Part shown: piece by piece, positions 36,873-43,077 of the stretch | How positions within the stretch are numbered: position 1 is the stretch's first letter | Layout: the number at the start of each line of letters is the position of its first letter | NCBI GenBank assembly: GCA_019058315.1 | Contig: JAHPZH010000001.1 | Coordinates: 64,001 to 128,000, forward strand | DNA: 64,000 bases | Direction of reading: 5' to 3' | Origin: Candidatus Helarchaeota archaeon | GTDB taxonomy: Archaea > Asgardarchaeota > Lokiarchaeia > Helarchaeales > RDOG01 | The notes under the pieces: generated by a model | The model's input: only the letters and a program-made list of their open reading frames with translations | Database searches by the model: none | What the model was told of the DNA's origin: nothing | Made by a program: the position numbers and the translations under genes

Positions 36873-37565
36873 TCATACCTTTAAATCAAAAAACAAGTCA
36901 ATTCCATATTTATCATAAAGCTCATCAATCAGGTAAATCAATGGGTTTAAATGACTTTTATAACGATCCCAAACAAGATGAGTTGTTTTTTCTCTTCTTT
37001 GTGCAAAATGTAAGAATCCCTCGCTATCAAAACATGGATCTTTTGGTCGGGGCGTTACTTGAATCGTAGGAGGAACATCTGGATATTCTGCATTGAATAA
37101 AATTTTCGAAACTCTTACCACACCATCTCTCCATTTAGATGATACATAAATACCCTTTTCCGGGCGTTTTTTATCTATGTATTTCCATTCACTACCGTTT
37201 ATTTCCACTATGTATTTTAGATGGGTTTTAAACAACTCAGTTCCACTTTTAATTTTACTAGAAATACTCCCACCTATGGGTTCCGGAATCCAGTATATCT
37301 TATCTGTGTCTTGTGCTATTTCCCCTATCGTGTTGCGAAGAGATATTGGTACTTTTCGACCTTGTGTAATATAGTAAAGTTTTATTGTTAGCATGTTAAT
37401 TCCGACGTTTCTAACATTGCCATATCCTAAATTTAAAACGTCTAAGATTCGATCATTATATTTCCATAATAATCTACTGGCAACATCCCTGATAATCTCA
37501 TCTTCTTGAGATTCAACATAATCTGTGGTCCCAATAAGTGGATTAACCCAAGTTATTTCTTTCAA
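36873..37565 (-). CDS. Ubiquitin-like domain (internal PIGG) fused to an atypical E2/UBC-fold domain
   Basis: N-half is homologous to 38522-38830 (DKIYWIPEPIGG vs DKIYWEPEPIGGH); C-half is homologous to 38870-39232 with ILFNAEYPDVPP and HLNPLIYLIDE. Confidence 0.75.
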   Translation of the reverse strand: MKEITWVNPLIGTTDYVESQEDEIIRDVASRLLWKYNDRILDVLNLGYGNVRNVGINMLTIKLYYITQGRKVPISLRNTIGEIAQDTDKIYWIPEPIGGSISSKIKSGTELFKTHLKYIVEINGSEWKYIDKKRPEKGIYVSSKWRDGVVRVSKILFNAEYPDVPPTIQVTPRPKDPCFDSEGFLHFAQRREKTTHLVWDRYKSHLNPLIYLIDELYDKYGIDLFFDLKV

Positions 37566-37637: not shown

Positions 37638-38405
37638 TTGATGAAAAGATTTTTCTTTGGTCCTGTTCTTTCTCGTAGATTGGGTTTTTCTTTAGGGATT
37701 GATATATTACCCGATAAAAAGACTTGTACTTTTGACTGTCTTTACTGTGAAATAGGAAAAACTCGACGAGTTACCTCCCCAAAAACCCGTTCTCCTTTCC
37801 TAATAGAAAATAAAAAGAATTTTGAATTACAATTAAGAAATATCTTATCTCAAGATATATTAATCGATACATTAACATTTGCAGGATATTCGGGTGAGGC
37901 AACATTAAATAGTGAATTAAATACATTTTTAAACATTACAAAATCTGTAAGATCTGACCTGCATAAAGAAAATATCCCAATATCCATTTTGACTAATTCC
38001 TCAACAATTAATTTTCCTGAAATTAGAAAAATATTAATGAATTTTGATAATATAGTTGCGAAATTAGATGTTGGAAATCAAGCTTCTTTTATGAAGGTGA
38101 ATCGTCCACATTTTTTAGTTCCACAAATTTCTGATATTATAAATGGTTTAAAGCAATTAAGGGAGGAGCTTGATAAGAATCGACTCGTTATTCAGACTCT
38201 TTTGTTTAGTGAAAATAATGATAGAAAAAACATTGATTCATTAATTGAAGCTTACAATATTATCAATCCAAATAAAATTCAACTTTACTCGATTGCCCGT
38301 CCACCCGCATATGCCGTAAAAAAAATAGATGGGCTTCAATTGGAACAGATAAAAAAGAATATGCAAGATGTATTAAAAACCAATATTAAAATTGAAACTT
38401 ATTAA
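37638..38405 (+). CDS. Radical SAM protein (COG0731-like Fe-S oxidoreductase)
   Basis: FGPVLSRRLGFSLGID, CTFDCLYC, SGEATL, LTNSS, AKLD, VNRP, YSIARPP. Confidence 0.88.
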   Translation: MMKRFFFGPVLSRRLGFSLGIDILPDKKTCTFDCLYCEIGKTRRVTSPKTRSPFLIENKKNFELQLRNILSQDILIDTLTFAGYSGEATLNSELNTFLNITKSVRSDLHKENIPISILTNSSTINFPEIRKILMNFDNIVAKLDVGNQASFMKVNRPHFLVPQISDIINGLKQLREELDKNRLVIQTLLFSENNDRKNIDSLIEAYNIINPNKIQLYSIARPPAYAVKKIDGLQLEQIKKNMQDVLKTNIKIETY

Positions 38406-38521: not shown

Positions 38522-38830
38522 ATGCCAGAAATGACATATGTCTGCCCGCAAATAGGTAGTACAGATTATTTAGATTATGAAGAAGATACGACCTTCGAAG
38601 ATCAAATAAATGAACTAAAAGAGAAATATTTACGAGATATTCTTGATTACGTTCAGCAATTTCGAAATATACGTCAAAATATAGGATTAGATCAAATTAC
38701 TGTAAAGATACACTATATTGATGCTGAAGGTATCAAACAAACAATTGGACTTAAAACTTACGTTAAGGCAATGGCTGAACGTCATATTGATAAGATATAT
38801 TGGGAACCCGAACCCATTGGAGGGCATTAA
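38522..38830 (+). CDS. Ubiquitin-like (beta-grasp) protein ending PIGG-H
   Basis: Strand/helix pattern beta-beta-alpha(DTTFEDQINELKEKY)-insert-beta-beta-beta; di-Gly masked by one residue; adjacent to an E2-like gene. Confidence 0.72.
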   Translation: MPEMTYVCPQIGSTDYLDYEEDTTFEDQINELKEKYLRDILDYVQQFRNIRQNIGLDQITVKIHYIDAEGIKQTIGLKTYVKAMAERHIDKIYWEPEPIGGH

Positions 38831-38869: not shown

Positions 38870-39232
38870 ATGCAGCAAACTTCTAAACAAATCTTTGCAA
38901 GTCATATTTACGATTTGACAGTTCGACCCGGTTATTATCGCTCTACATGGAAACTAATTAATAAAAAAATACCCTTAAAAGGAGCTTTCGGTCATTTTAT
39001 GGGCAAGGATTTTCGAGTAATTGTAATAAAAATCTTATTTAATTCAAAATATCCCGAAAATCCTCCAAAAATTATTAGCACTCCTCCTATCCGCGATGTT
39101 TGTTGGGATAATAAGGGTGTGTTACATTGGGCTAGATACGGGGGAGAGTTTGTATGGAGTAAATATAAAGATCACTCCAATCCATTAATTTATGTCGCAG
39201 ATGAAATTACTGAAAAATATAAAACCATGTAA
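38870..39232 (+). CDS. Atypical E2/UBC-fold protein
   Basis: ILFNSKYPENPPKIISTPPIRDVCWDNKGVLHW aligns without gaps to the UBC core [33 protein letters not shown]. Confidence 0.75.
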   Translation: MQQTSKQIFASHIYDLTVRPGYYRSTWKLINKKIPLKGAFGHFMGKDFRVIVIKILFNSKYPENPPKIISTPPIRDVCWDNKGVLHWARYGGEFVWSKYKDHSNPLIYVADEITEKYKTM

Positions 39233-39256: not shown

Positions 39257-40834
39257 TTACTTTTTAATTATTATTGCCACTAACACTAGAATTACTATCG
39301 CCATAGCACCAATTATTATCAAGAGAATAAGAGGATCAATTGGAAAACCCGCACCTGTCGGTATAGGTATAAAATTATCCATAGGTTCTGTAGACACTAA
39401 TGAAACTTTTTGTGCATATATATCATAATCACTTAAGCTTCTATTATCCTGCCACGTTATGATAGCAACTCCAGAACTAACGTAAATAATCTCATGATTT
39501 TCTTGCAAACCATATTCTGTACATACTGGCAGACCCTTACCAACATATTGCAAAATACCATTTTTATCGAGCATTTGTGCATAGATTGATCCATTAGCAT
39601 CTTCTTCTTTATCTATCCAAGAGATAAATGAATTTCCTGAGGAGTCGCAGCAAATCCTAGACTGTTGTTGATCACTGGGTGAAGTACAAACAGGGGTACC
39701 ATTATTTCTCCATAATGTGGTGCCTATTGGGTTAATTTTTTGAGTATAGATATCCTCCTCATAAATATTTCGTAAATCCTGCCATGTAATAATTGCATTT
39801 CCCTCACTATCACAGCAAATTTTTGGATAGAATTGGCTATATTCTGCTGTACAAATTGGTGTGCCATTGAGAGTCCAATAAACAGTACCAGTTGAGTCGA
39901 TTTTTTGTGCATATATATCTGTATATGTACCGTTTCTATTATCCACCCAAGTGATAATTGCATTACCAGAACTATCACAGCAAATATCAGGCCAATATTG
40001 ACTGTCAGTTGCATTACAAATTACAGTACCATTGTCTTGCAATTGTGAATGACCTGTAGAATTAATAAATTGACAATAGATATCGTTATCTGATGTTGTC
40101 ATATTTCTATAGTCTTGCCAAGTAATAATTGCGTTTCCTGCACCATAAACACTAATTTTTGGAAATGTTTGGATGTTTATAGCATTGCAAATTATTTTTC
40201 CGTTAGTTGTCCATTGGACAACTCCACTCGAATTAATTCTCTGGGCATGGATATTAGATGTTGCAAATTCATCATTTATCCATGTAAGAATCGCACCGCC
40301 TAAATTATCGCTGCAAATTTCTATCCTTGATTCATCATTAGGCAAACCAGTAATTTGCACACCGTTGGCAGTCCATTGCGTAATCCCGTTTGCGTCCACT
40401 CTTTGAGCTTTAATATTTTGAGTATCTTCCCATGCGATGATTGCCCCCCCAGAACCATCAGAACATATCTGGGGAAGAGTTTGAGAACCAGGAGAGTTAC
40501 AAATTAATGTGCCGTTAACATCCCATAATGGATTCCCATTTGAATCGATTCTTTGAACATAAATACTAGAAATGTCTCTGGAATCCGCCCAAGTAATAAT
40601 TGCACCACCAGTTCCATCACTGCATATTTCAGGATTATATTGGTCTTGTGGCGTTTGTACACATACAGGTGTACCATTAGCTGCCCATTGCGTACTTAAA
40701 CCATTAGCCTTGAGTTTAGATTTCTCATCAATTTTTAAAAGTAAGACATTTTGATTGCTAAACCCTGTATATGAATTTATAGCTAAAATGGAAAACATCA
40801 AGATTGGGATTAAAATTAAAAACCTTTTCTTCAT
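39257..40834 (-). CDS. Secreted beta-propeller protein with C-terminal TM anchor
   Basis: About seven repeats W..NGT.IC....Q..P.ICSD..GGAIITW.D.R...DIY.Q.I; signal peptide MKKRFLILIP; C-terminal hydrophobic helix followed by KK. Confidence 0.85.
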   Translation of the reverse strand: MKKRFLILIPILMFSILAINSYTGFSNQNVLLLKIDEKSKLKANGLSTQWAANGTPVCVQTPQDQYNPEICSDGTGGAIITWADSRDISSIYVQRIDSNGNPLWDVNGTLICNSPGSQTLPQICSDGSGGAIIAWEDTQNIKAQRVDANGITQWTANGVQITGLPNDESRIEICSDNLGGAILTWINDEFATSNIHAQRINSSGVVQWTTNGKIICNAINIQTFPKISVYGAGNAIITWQDYRNMTTSDNDIYCQFINSTGHSQLQDNGTVICNATDSQYWPDICCDSSGNAIITWVDNRNGTYTDIYAQKIDSTGTVYWTLNGTPICTAEYSQFYPKICCDSEGNAIITWQDLRNIYEEDIYTQKINPIGTTLWRNNGTPVCTSPSDQQQSRICCDSSGNSFISWIDKEEDANGSIYAQMLDKNGILQYVGKGLPVCTEYGLQENHEIIYVSSGVAIITWQDNRSLSDYDIYAQKVSLVSTEPMDNFIPIPTGAGFPIDPLILLIIIGAMAIVILVLVAIIIKK

Positions 40835-40949
40835 TTTTAACAAATCCAATTTTTATTAAAATATATCAAATATACTGAGGTTATAACATATAAATTGGAG
40901 TAATAGTTCATAGAGAAATAGAATAATTAAGTTAGAAAGTCGTGTAGAA

Positions 40950-42023
40950 ATGCGAGTAATTATAGATTCGTCGGTAATTGAATCATGTAAGCAAACAATT
41001 CAAGAATGTTATGGTGAAAAAGCGTTTAAAGAAGTAGGGGGGTATATTTTAGGAATGTTTGACGGCGAAAATTTCCAAGTTAAATCCCTTTATCTTGATA
41101 AATATGCTGAATCGACTTCTATCAGAATTAAACTAAGCGTTGATGCATTCCATGAAGTTGAGGAAATACTTTCCCAATCTCCTGAAATGATGTATATTGG
41201 GACATGGCATGTTCATCCTGGGACAGATAAACCCGCATACTCAAATGTTGATGTTTCAACTCTATTTTTAGAACGGGTAATTATAGACACAGATAATCCT
41301 GAAAGTTTGAAATGCCCAAAGATTCATATAATTTTTAATAATTCTCTAACTGAATATAGTTGTTATACTATGGATATATTTTTTAATTTTTTATGCGAAC
41401 CTCTTGATTCATCTGTTGCCAAAAATTTAGTTGAAGCTGAATTGCTTGAAATTGGGCTAGATGCCCTTACGGAATCTAAAACCTTGCTAAAACTAGAAAC
41501 TCTTGAAAGTTATATCAATTTACAAAAAAATATCGAAGAAGTGTATAATAATCTCGATTTAATTTCTGACCAAATCAATTTTGCACTTGACTTTTTTAAT
41601 GAACTTGAATGGTATAATAAAGTTGAAAATAAAATCGAAAAAATAATTAAGAATGAGATTAAAAATGGAGAAAGAATTGGAGTAATCTCTTCTGAAAACG
41701 AGAAAAAAATCGAAAGCTTGAAATATAGACCTAAGAATATAAAAAATTCATATACAGATGGATCTTTAGTAGGTTTTTGGGTATTATTTCCATACGAAAG
41801 TATCAGCGATATGTTTTTGAAAATTTTTTATGCTAATTTCTTCAAAAAAATTGAGACTGAACCTGGAGATGTCTTCTTATTCTTCCTAGTTCAAAAAATT
41901 AAGGAAGAAATCATGATTAAACCGTTTTTTTTAAATTTCACATCATTTGAAGGAATATCATATATAGAATTAGAAATGACTTTGATTGAGGATGACAATG
42001 AAAATAATGTTTCAGAATCCTGA
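40950..42023 (+). CDS. JAB/MPN+ (JAMM) metalloprotease with C-terminal extension
   Basis: EVGGYILG...GTWHVHPGTDKPAYSNVD fits E...HxH...SxxD; overlaps the E1 gene. Confidence 0.88.
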   Translation: MRVIIDSSVIESCKQTIQECYGEKAFKEVGGYILGMFDGENFQVKSLYLDKYAESTSIRIKLSVDAFHEVEEILSQSPEMMYIGTWHVHPGTDKPAYSNVDVSTLFLERVIIDTDNPESLKCPKIHIIFNNSLTEYSCYTMDIFFNFLCEPLDSSVAKNLVEAELLEIGLDALTESKTLLKLETLESYINLQKNIEEVYNNLDLISDQINFALDFFNELEWYNKVENKIEKIIKNEIKNGERIGVISSENEKKIESLKYRPKNIKNSYTDGSLVGFWVLFPYESISDMFLKIFYANFFKKIETEPGDVFLFFLVQKIKEEIMIKPFFLNFTSFEGISYIELEMTLIEDDNENNVSES

Positions 42024-43077
42024 TACGGGTGAAACAATATATATCGAGGATGAGGAGCTTCTTATCAGAGATATTGCCAATAAAATAATGAAAGAATACA
42101 ATCTAGAAAAACCACCAATCTTCTTCACCCTTATGAAAGAAGACCCAGTATCAGAAACTTATCTAGAAGAAGATGATAAATTAAAAACAATTAATGAAGA
42201 AAAATTGGATGTAAAGACACCAATATGGTGGCGATCGTCAGAAATTGATCTAGATTTAATTTATAAACTTCGAACAGAACGCTATGATAGATCGGGTTAT
42301 GAGCTAGAAAAAATCGGAAAAACCAAGGTATTAATTGCAGGTGTGGGATTATTAGGAGCGGATATTGCGTTTGATTGCGCAGTTTTAGGAATAAAGGACC
42401 TTACAATAATTGATTATGGGTCTGTAGATTGGTTTAATATCTATCGACAAAGTCTCTATTCCAAAAAAGATGTATTTAAATCGAAAGTTGAAGTGGCAAA
42501 AGAAAATCTCGAGGATATGGGGGGTGTAAATGTTAAATCATTAAAAATTGAGATTCCAAGTTTTATTTATCTGCCAGAAGATAAAAGTATAATACAAAAT
42601 TCCATTTTAAAAATTGAGCCTGAAGTTAAAAAATGTGATATAATAATTACTGCTCTTGATACATTCAGCGCTAGAATGATAATGCAAACTTTAGCTTTAG
42701 CAAATGATAAAATCCTTATTAATACGGCGGCTGGTCTAGTAGGTGGGGTAGTTCAATTAGTGAGAATTAAGCAAAATGATCCTTGCTTGGCATGTGGTAT
42801 TTATTTTGATAGAAATCAAGATGTGGGTGCGTGCACTTTGGCATCGTTTGGTACTCCTAAAATCATATCTGGAATTACAATGGAAATTTTGACAAATCTG
42901 ATTGAAGAAAGAGAAATCAAATATAACCATTTTAAATATATTCCCCAAACTTACCAAATAGAACAAAGTAATTTTATAAAAGGCAAAGAGTTCTGTGATT
43001 TTTGCGATAGGGAGAAAGGAATTATATTTAAATATAAAAATGGAGAAAAAAAAGCCCTAATTGATTGGTTATATTGA
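41998..43077 (+). CDS. ThiF/MoeB/E1-family adenylyltransferase with N-terminal Ubl-like domain
   Basis: RYDR, VLIAGVGLLG, IIDYGSVDWFNIYRQ, SKVEVAK, ALDTFSAR, Zn pairs PCLAC and CDFC, putative catalytic Cys in VGACT; start at ATG 41998. Confidence 0.88.
   Translation: MKIMFQNPDTGETIYIEDEELLIRDIANKIMKEYNLEKPPIFFTLMKEDPVSETYLEEDDKLKTINEEKLDVKTPIWWRSSEIDLDLIYKLRTERYDRSGYELEKIGKTKVLIAGVGLLGADIAFDCAVLGIKDLTIIDYGSVDWFNIYRQSLYSKKDVFKSKVEVAKENLEDMGGVNVKSLKIEIPSFIYLPEDKSIIQNSILKIEPEVKKCDIIITALDTFSARMIMQTLALANDKILINTAAGLVGGVVQLVRIKQNDPCLACGIYFDRNQDVGACTLASFGTPKIISGITMEILTNLIEEREIKYNHFKYIPQTYQIEQSNFIKGKEFCDFCDREKGIIFKYKNGEKKALIDWLY

Follow-up and report, generated by a model that had tools for sequence, protein, structure and literature searches.

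How far can the active site of a ubiquitin-conjugating enzyme (E2) be rearranged within its fold? E2s are defined by a His-Pro-Asn (HPN) motif followed by a catalytic cysteine, and each departure from this arrangement, namely UFC1, ATG3/ATG10 and the serine-based Bub E2s, has taught new chemistry. The question is raised here by a stretch of 64,000 nucleotides, hereafter the window, from a Candidatus Helarchaeota archaeon (GenBank assembly GCA_019058315.1, contig JAHPZH010000001.1, positions 64,001 to 128,000), where five genes within 36.8-43.1 kb make up a ubiquitin-like conjugation locus (Table 1). Two of them encode an E2-like domain, as a stand-alone protein in one case and fused to a ubiquitin-like protein (Ubl) in the other; the remaining three encode a stand-alone Ubl, a JAMM/JAB metalloprotease and an E1-like adenylyltransferase. 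A first-pass annotation, made from the DNA letters alone, had proposed that both domains bear a rearranged active site, in which the nucleophile moved to the Asn position of HPN and perhaps forms a Cys-His-Asp triad endowed with new transfer, hydrolase or self-processing activity.

As argued below, the two domains are probably active non-canonical E2 carriers in a cysteine-based Ubl conjugation pathway, a reading to which a probability of roughly 0.55 is given. If true, the active site of the UBC (E2) fold can be rebuilt one turn away, and the oxyester Bub pathway would have a counterpart that relies on cysteines in the closest lineage to eukaryotes. Should the nucleophile have truly moved, a less certain point taken up below, this would be a natural case of active-site migration in one of the best-studied enzyme folds. 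To the reading of the motif itself, the present analysis adds a family-wide residue census, which separates a constant cysteine from a variable histidine.

Fold of the E2-like domains

The family of both domains was delineated by an exhaustive profile search of 1.84 billion representatives, from which 39 proteins were retained at E<=0.001, and no published description of it was found in literature searches. Neither E2-like protein of the window matched a family at E<=0.1 in Pfam, NCBIfam and PADLOC scans, including UQ_con of Pfam with its gathering threshold, and six of the 39 members match UQ_con weakly (best E 0.0063). At the level of the fold, membership of the UBC/E2 superfamily is established by a structural model and its matches, as the first-pass annotation had assumed for both domains. 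The AlphaFold2 model of the family alignment (predicted local distance difference test, pLDDT, 94.3; predicted template modelling score 0.87) displays the helix 1, four-strand meander and central helix of canonical E2s but stops where the latter add two C-terminal helices; the Y-P-x-x-P-P segment, the Gly of the active-site loop with the hydrophobic pattern around it and the Trp following the loop are likewise shared with canonical E2s.

Searched against the PDB, the 39-member profile matched 183 distinct sequences at E<=10, the best at E 0.001 and E2 entries at E 0.001-0.1; the matches listed (60 of the 183) all have names of the superfamily of UBC domains and ubiquitin E2 variants (UEVs), one of them being FANCL. 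With the model as query, the best 50 rows of Foldseek are all UBC/UEV entries, and VIA-align of the Foldseek matches gave Ubc7 a Z of 10.3 (root-mean-square deviation 3.3, 111 residues), with 134 chains at Z>=8. When VIA-align was run against one representative per PDB cluster, the UEV-like domain of VPS37A came out best (Z 9.4), with canonical E2s, Mms2, Tsg101, RWD domains, ATG3, ATG10 and UFC1 at Z 7-9; BubB, Cap2 and BilB were not among the best 50 of either VIA-align list.

Position of the conserved cysteine

The two domains share 41% identity (E 4e-26) and carry exactly one Cys each, that of the fusion (C178) being the sole Cys of the whole pre-protein, as a residue count bears out. In both, this Cys takes the position of the HPN Asn, one loop-turn before the usual catalytic position. 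The register comes from two unbiased profile alignments. In the first, between the family hidden Markov model and the PDB, 'kdpcfdeeGelh' is aligned with 'YHPNIDEKGQV(K/C)' of UbcH7, whose Cys86 is a Lys in that entry; in the second, hhalign placed D-p-C opposite the H-P-N of the three canonical HPN...Cys E2s of the same genome. Both alignments are gap-free from Y-P-x-x-P-P through G-x-L-H, with the canonical Gly and the flanking hydrophobic pattern in match, thereby reproducing the alignment of the first-pass annotation: D-x-C falls on H-P-N, and a His falls on the catalytic Cys. The hallmark of canonical E2s, i.e. an H-P-N with the catalytic Cys seven to eight residues further on, is absent from the family as a whole, where [D/H]-x-C stands for H-P-N and His or a variable residue for the catalytic Cys; a Cys at the canonical position is found in two of the 39 members.

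It could be objected that nothing moved at all, namely that the loop after strand 4 is shorter here and that C78 of the stand-alone protein lies at the canonical Cys point in space. This would make the domain an ordinary minimal E2 in which the segment leading to the His is a family-specific insertion and the downstream His is placed as in BilB (Cys138/His151). Several non-canonical E2s do vary in the length of the loop before their Cys and have a nearby downstream His (PMC10557695, PMC1779556), and in the model a beta-hairpin follows the His in place of the canonical 3-10 helix. This explanation is nonetheless rather improbable, considering that two independent gap-free profile alignments match the canonical Gly and hydrophobic pattern on both sides of the Cys, and that the H-P-C variants of the family look like HPN with the Asn alone changed. 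As for a supposed 'HPC' precedent in ATG3/ATG10, it was discarded: in Atg3, it is Thr213 that stands for the Asn, and the catalytic Cys234 belongs to the canonical Cys segment (PMC6689050).

Residue conservation and the fate of the histidine

The census was made on the E2-domain alignment of the 39 representatives at 50% identity, with the numbering of the stand-alone protein. C78 is kept in 36 of the 39 and is one of just 14 columns conserved at >=90%, in a family with a mean column identity of 30%; no second Cys column, nor any Ser/Thr column, reaches 80% in this alignment. D76 is almost as constant (34/39; His in three, Asn in two). Other near-invariant residues are F9 and H12 (both in helix 1), Y61-P62, P65-P66, P72, G83, W96, Y117 and, where the central helix begins, N104-P105-L106. 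H86 is far less constant (20/39), giving way to Asn in six members, to Asp in five, to Cys and Met in two each, and to Lys, Ser, Pro or Gly in one each. On the maximum-likelihood tree, the His label at this position changes at least seven times, the Cys staying in place; His occurs on both sides of the midpoint root and may be ancestral but repeatedly lost. Even in two genomes of the same order, the orthologues of the solo paralogue read G-V-L-N and not G-V-L-H. Judged from the aligned sequences, the shifted Cys is a constant feature of the family and the Cys-His-Asp triad is not, because H86 is present in 20 of 39 members only while the Cys is present in 36. The earlier claim that D, C, D, G and H are all kept holds for the two paralogues of the window and their closest relatives but fails for the His, both family-wide and in the same-order solo orthologues.

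An obligate triad of Cys78, His86 and Asp76 would open the way to papain-like hydrolysis, to self-processing at the Ubl-E2 junction or to transfer onto non-lysine targets. All three residues are indeed found in both paralogues and their closest relatives, and their proximity is plausible since the positions of Asn and Cys both open onto one active-site cleft in canonical E2s. Besides, the E2s of the Type I Bub pathway use a Ser with a nearby His and Asp (PMC11601596). Such a triad is nevertheless highly improbable: the His gave way to eight different residues (N, D, C, M, K, S, G and P) without loss of the Cys, including to Asn in close orthologues. Regarding the hydrolase or self-processing activity suggested at first, it did not survive either, since many Ubl-E2 fusions lack the His, which is therefore not needed for cleavage in cis, and the locus has a JAMM protease of its own for the cutting, whose motif is intact. 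A Zn site built from D76, C78, H86 and H12 was also considered and rejected on account of the variable H86.

Rather than a triad member, H86 may be an accessory polar residue that helps to deprotonate the Cys or the incoming amine where it is kept, and that is dispensable since about half of the family replaced it. A polar residue near the E2 nucleophile is a recurrent theme, e.g. His151 of BilB (PMC10557695), His335 and Asp299 of Bub (PMC11601596) and the downstream His of the 6d family (PMC1779556), and by analogy the His at the old Cys position fits this theme, in which the residue is often a His. The natural variants at that position (His, Asn, Asp, Cys, Met) would allow the contribution of the neighbouring residue to be tested. 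More speculatively, the part of the Asn lost from HPN might be played by N104, with which the central helix begins.

Some members combine old and new features. In three lineages position 76 is a His, giving H-P-C or H-Q-C, in other words an HPN in which the Asn alone has changed, and two proteins (P0040 and P0045) have a Cys at both the HPN-Asn and the canonical catalytic positions (D-x-C...G-x-L-C); these double-Cys forms could be intermediates or reversions of a nucleophile shift. That the nucleophile truly moved from the canonical Cys to the HPN-Asn position, there to work with an ATG7-like E1 in Asgard archaea, is a tentative proposal whose odds are judged to fall slightly short of even. 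It is with the same reserve that H-P-C with the His of HPN, D-x-C...C and D-x-C...H/N/D are proposed as stages of this migration kept within the family.

Ubiquitin-like proteins, JAMM protease and E1

The context of the two domains is in keeping with an active Ubl conjugation pathway. The Ubl moiety of the fusion ends with P-I-G-G, and its 99 residues share 42% identity with the stand-alone Ubl, which ends with I-G-G-H and has one residue to be trimmed for an exposed Gly-Gly. The model of the Ubl module matches ubiquitin and other beta-grasp structures. Most family representatives are Ubl-E2 fusions, and solo Ubl homologues also occur (P0017, P0018, P0028, P0031 and P0032).

The metalloprotease is recognised by the JAB (Cap3-type) models of PADLOC (E 1.6e-10) and weakly by Prok-JAB of Pfam, and has an intact JAMM motif (H87-x-H-x8-S-x2-D101), with the upstream Glu in E-V-G-G. 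Its residues ~230-320 form a second conserved block ('LVGFW...FPY') that matches no family and is common to the JAB partners of two loci (L001 and L003).

The E1-like protein has one ThiF match (E 3.3e-31), and its best PDB matches are the adenylation domains of ATG7 (E 6e-14). Its C283, in G-A-C-T-L, is aligned with the Cys of the Atg7 segment 'MCTVTRPG', which we take to be the catalytic Cys507 of Atg7. Together with the glycine-rich ATP loop and the four cysteines of a Zn site (C267-x2-C270/C337-x2-C340), C283 is invariant in 20 E1 homologues. The first ~85 residues of this E1 resemble the Ubl family of the locus (hhalign E 4e-4, 42% over 36 columns) but lack a Gly-Gly; kept in all 20 aligned homologues, this domain may be a built-in docking domain comparable to a UFD. 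Co-folding of the E1 with the E2-like protein scored 0.38 against 0.00 for the best control, with at least 76% contact agreement between runs and a partner pLDDT of at least 86. Of 80 solved complexes, 58 came up to the mark, as did two of 110 mismatched pairs, scores of 0.60 or less coming from just seven of those 80 complexes and from both mismatches; the predicted complex lends weak support to an E1-E2 pairing.

From these elements a pathway can be sketched. By analogy with the processing of BubAB by BubCD, the JAMM protease would cut the Ubl-E2 pre-protein after G99 and trim the extra His from the stand-alone Ubl, exposing Gly-Gly in both cases. As its conserved motifs suggest, the ATG7-like E1 would adenylate the Ubl and load it on Cys283, a catalytic-type Cys that implies a thioester relay. 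The Ubl would next be handed over to C78 or C178, the one Cys conserved in the E2-like domains, and from there to the target, no E3 being in sight. The scheme starts from the UBC fold, the register, the Cys conservation and the operon partnership; cleavage, thioester formation and transfer are derived from the motifs and from the characterised Type I Bub pathway.

Is the E2-like domain only a passive companion in such a pathway? It could be a catalytically inert UEV/RWD-like module with a structural Cys, serving as chaperone, adaptor or specificity factor through non-covalent contacts with the Ubl or the E1; conjugation would then be carried out by the E1 alone or by another E2. Several observations weigh against an active E2 in this respect. 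The closest PDB sequence matches of the family are catalytically inert UEVs (Leishmania UEV1, a Plasmodium UEV and Mms2), in line with the top rank of VPS37A in the wide structural search, and the first two have a Cys at the very same position (L-P-C and M-S-C), so that an inactive domain can have a Cys there. As in UEVs, a residue other than Cys stands at the canonical position, and the shifted Cys itself was lost in three of the 39 members: one solo protein has Thr instead, and two sister proteins, triple fusions of Ubl, E2 and JAB, have Arg and Ser. In another Helarchaeota genome, the fused gene (P0009) stands apart from the JAB and E1 genes. Finally, the SAMP systems of archaea are not known to need an E2 for conjugation, so that an E1-only pathway with an adaptor domain is possible.

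This inert-module explanation carries real weight but is less likely in either form. UEV genes do not come with an E1, a protease and a GG-ended Ubl of their own, and a Cys is not a UEV-wide feature, while in the present family a Cys one turn before the vacant canonical position has been retained in nearly all members in spite of extensive divergence elsewhere. In addition, the E1 keeps its catalytic-type Cys and no other E2 is encoded in the locus or in the family operons read, the three canonical E2s of the genome lying on other contigs. A comparable domain of operon type 6e was once classed as inactive E2/RWD-like (Iyer et al. 2006, PMC1779556), yet in Bub it turned out to work as an E2 by means of a Ser (PMC11601596). 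Because of the fold, the Cys conservation and the company of a GG-ended Ubl, a JAMM protease and an E1 with its Cys, the shifted Cys is best considered, as far as sequences can tell, as the leading candidate nucleophile, and the first-pass view that these are not simply dead UEVs is upheld to that extent. If inert after all, the family would still be an unannotated UEV-like partner of an archaeal Ubl pathway.

Comparison with known systems

The closest parallel is Type I Bub (formerly 6E.1/DUF6527), composed of BubAB, BubCD and BubE (Ye, Gong, Chambers & Corbett, PMC11601596) and corresponding to the operon type 6e of Iyer et al. 2006 (PMC1779556), in which BubAB, a Ubl-E2 fusion, is cleaved behind a conserved Gly by BubCD, a fusion of JAB and E1 (PMC11601596). 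As in this system, the Ubl is fused by way of a junction Gly to a minimal UBC-fold E2 deprived of the two C-terminal helices, the JAMM protease is fused to the E1 (locus L003) or encoded directly upstream with an overlap (here), the E2 is sometimes a separate gene, there is no E3, and the non-canonical E2 site has a nearby Asp and His. Bub is however cysteine-free, with a Tyr in the E1, a Ser at the canonical Cys position of the E2 and oxyester intermediates, whereas here Cys283 of the E1 is invariant and a conserved Cys occupies the HPN-Asn position of the E2. The E1 also differs in being closest to ATG7/Cap2 and in carrying an N-terminal Ubl-like domain, the hosts are Asgard archaea rather than bacteria, and no sequence match between the E2 domains of the two systems was seen. 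BubE (DUF6527, PF20137) had no match in this genome, which is 94% complete, while it was detected in a control genome. The architecture is that of Type I Bub; the predicted cysteine-based chemistry of both the E1 and the E2, the shifted position of the candidate nucleophile and the absence of BubE set the present system apart. With it, the design in which a pre-protein is cleaved by its own JAB-E1 would reach into archaea and into thioester chemistry.

A Ser at the shifted position is found in one of the 39 family members. It belongs to one of the two triple fusions of Ubl, E2-like domain and JAB, P0035 and P0039 (445 and 659 aa, from metagenomes), where Arg and Ser have taken the place of the family Cys; the Ser form recalls the oxyester E2 of Bub.

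Other systems share one or another of these features. Like ATG7, the E1 has an adenylation domain with a catalytic Cys in the crossover loop, but the N-terminal domain of ATG7 is missing and a Ubl-like domain stands in its place. Like Cap2/Cap3 of type II CBASS, whose PADLOC models match the E1 and the JAB protease, respectively, and like ATG3/ATG10, the system involves a minimal non-canonical E2 without HPN; Cap2 is however an E2 fused to an E1 and conjugates a CD-NTase, not a Ubl, and the Cys of Atg3 lies in the canonical segment, as seen above. In common with Bil (BilABCD), there are separate Ubl, E2, JAB and E1 genes, no E3 and an E2 Cys near a conserved His (PMC10557695). In Bil, though, Cys138 of BilB is at the canonical position, the E2 motif is C-E-H-H, the E1 has tandem adenylation domains and a CYS domain (IAD-AAD-CYS), and no Ubl-E2 fusion exists, as opposed to [D/H]-x-C...G-x-L-x, a single ThiF match and a crossover-loop Cys here. 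Going by the motifs that define them, the E2-like family lies outside UQ_con, ATG3/ATG10 and BilB, and probably outside UEV.

Distribution and genomic neighbourhoods

The association with partner genes recurs beyond the window, as JAB, JAB-E1 or E1 genes lie directly downstream of family members in three independent contigs. In L003, a 681-aa JAB-E1 fusion directly follows the Ubl-E2 gene of P0036 and overlaps its end, its JAB half being related to the JAB of the window (E 1e-17); the Ubl-E2 gene of P0037 is followed by JAB, ThiF and JAB, and that of P0020 by a homologue of the JAB of the window (E 1e-21). No partner was present on the 2.4-kb contig of P0025. One branch of the family (P0036, P0038, P0040 and P0043-P0046) is rich in GC. 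In another Asgard genome (L004, 5996-6798, minus strand), a 245-aa protein with HEAT repeats and a ubiquitin domain is encoded beside an operon of the H-P-C type.

Within the phylum, the family is present in 11 of 400 genomes. All seven genomes of this order have it, five of them with two matches above the cut-off, and those two-match genomes whose loci were read combine one longer form (with an attached Ubl or an upstream extension) and one solo form. The remaining four of the 11 genomes belong to three other Asgard families, and none was found among ~150 genomes of sister families of the same class.

On other contigs, the genome under study encodes an ordinary Asgard ubiquitin set, with its three HPN...Cys E2s, a GG-ended ubiquitin, RING and UEV proteins, and the locus is a second, separate Ubl pathway because this set exists elsewhere. 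The presence of the family beside an ATG7-like E1, in a genome with a complete canonical ubiquitin system, enlarges the repertoire of Ubl pathways close to where eukaryotes arose. Canonical ubiquitin genes of this genome form a compact cluster on contig C10 at ~104.4-107.6 kb (L008) and in L020, coding for an 81-aa GG-ended ubiquitin, an 87-aa RING protein, an HPN...Cys E2 of 152 aa and a UEV-like protein of 224 aa whose tail is a coiled coil.

Layout of the locus and neighbouring genes

The window is AT-rich (GC ~31%), and its proteins have close homologues under the labels Helarchaeota or Promethearchaeota, i.e. Asgard archaea. The JAB and E1 genes overlap by 38 nt. The open reading frames (ORFs) of the stand-alone Ubl and of the stand-alone E2-like protein are in the same frame, which brought to mind a broken gene with read-through; they are separate genes, with three stops (TAA, TAA, TAG) and a new GAGG ribosome-binding site between them, and read-through was also rejected because solo Ubl and solo E2 forms recur elsewhere in the family.

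Table 1. Genes and key residues of the Ubl conjugation locus and its surroundings, with positions in the window
Feature	Position	Strand	Remarks
Ubl-E2 fusion pre-protein, 230 aa	36873-37565	-	Ubl = residues 1-99; E2-like domain ~105-230
H186 of the fusion	37008-37010	-	canonical Cys position
C178 of the fusion	37032-37034	-	HPN-Asn position
D176 of the fusion	37038-37040	-	
Gly-Gly of the fusion Ubl	37269-37274	-	
Radical SAM gene between the two Ubl/E2 units	37638-38405	+	Pfam Radical_SAM E 2.6e-6, under gathering score
Stand-alone Ubl, 102 aa, C-terminus I-G-G-H	38522-38830	+	homology to fusion N-terminal half
Stand-alone E2-like (UBC-fold) protein, 120 aa	38870-39232	+	own GAGG ribosome-binding site; AlphaFold2 model and fold matches
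Y61-P62 of the stand-alone E2-like protein	begins 39050	+	
D76 of the same	39095-39097	+	
C78 of the same	39101-39103	+	HPN-Asn position
H86 of the same	39125-39127	+	canonical Cys position
N104 of the same	39179-39181	+	start of central helix
530-aa protein	39257-40849	-	
JAMM/JAB metalloprotease, 357 aa	40950-42023	+	PADLOC JAB, weak Pfam Prok-JAB; conserved C-terminal extension
JAMM motif	~41208-41252	+	
E1-like adenylyltransferase, 363 aa	41986-43077	+	ThiF match; N-terminal Ubl-like domain without GG
N-terminal Ubl-like domain of the E1	41986-42270	+	first ~85 residues
C283 of the E1	42832-42834	+	

The radical SAM gene is flanked on one side by the Ubl-E2 fusion and on the other by the split Ubl and E2 pair, which are in divergent orientation, and has weak matches of the viperin type (pVip E 2.9e-7, NCBIfam viperin E 1.4e-6). 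No such gene was seen beside family members in the other contigs read, and it may at most be a candidate member of the locus.

A further gene encodes the 530-aa protein of Table 1, which has an N-terminal signal or anchor and a C-terminal transmembrane helix but no Pfam family. It contains about eight repeats around 'ICSD/CCDS-GGAIITW', and its gene separates the E2 genes from the JAB-E1 pair.

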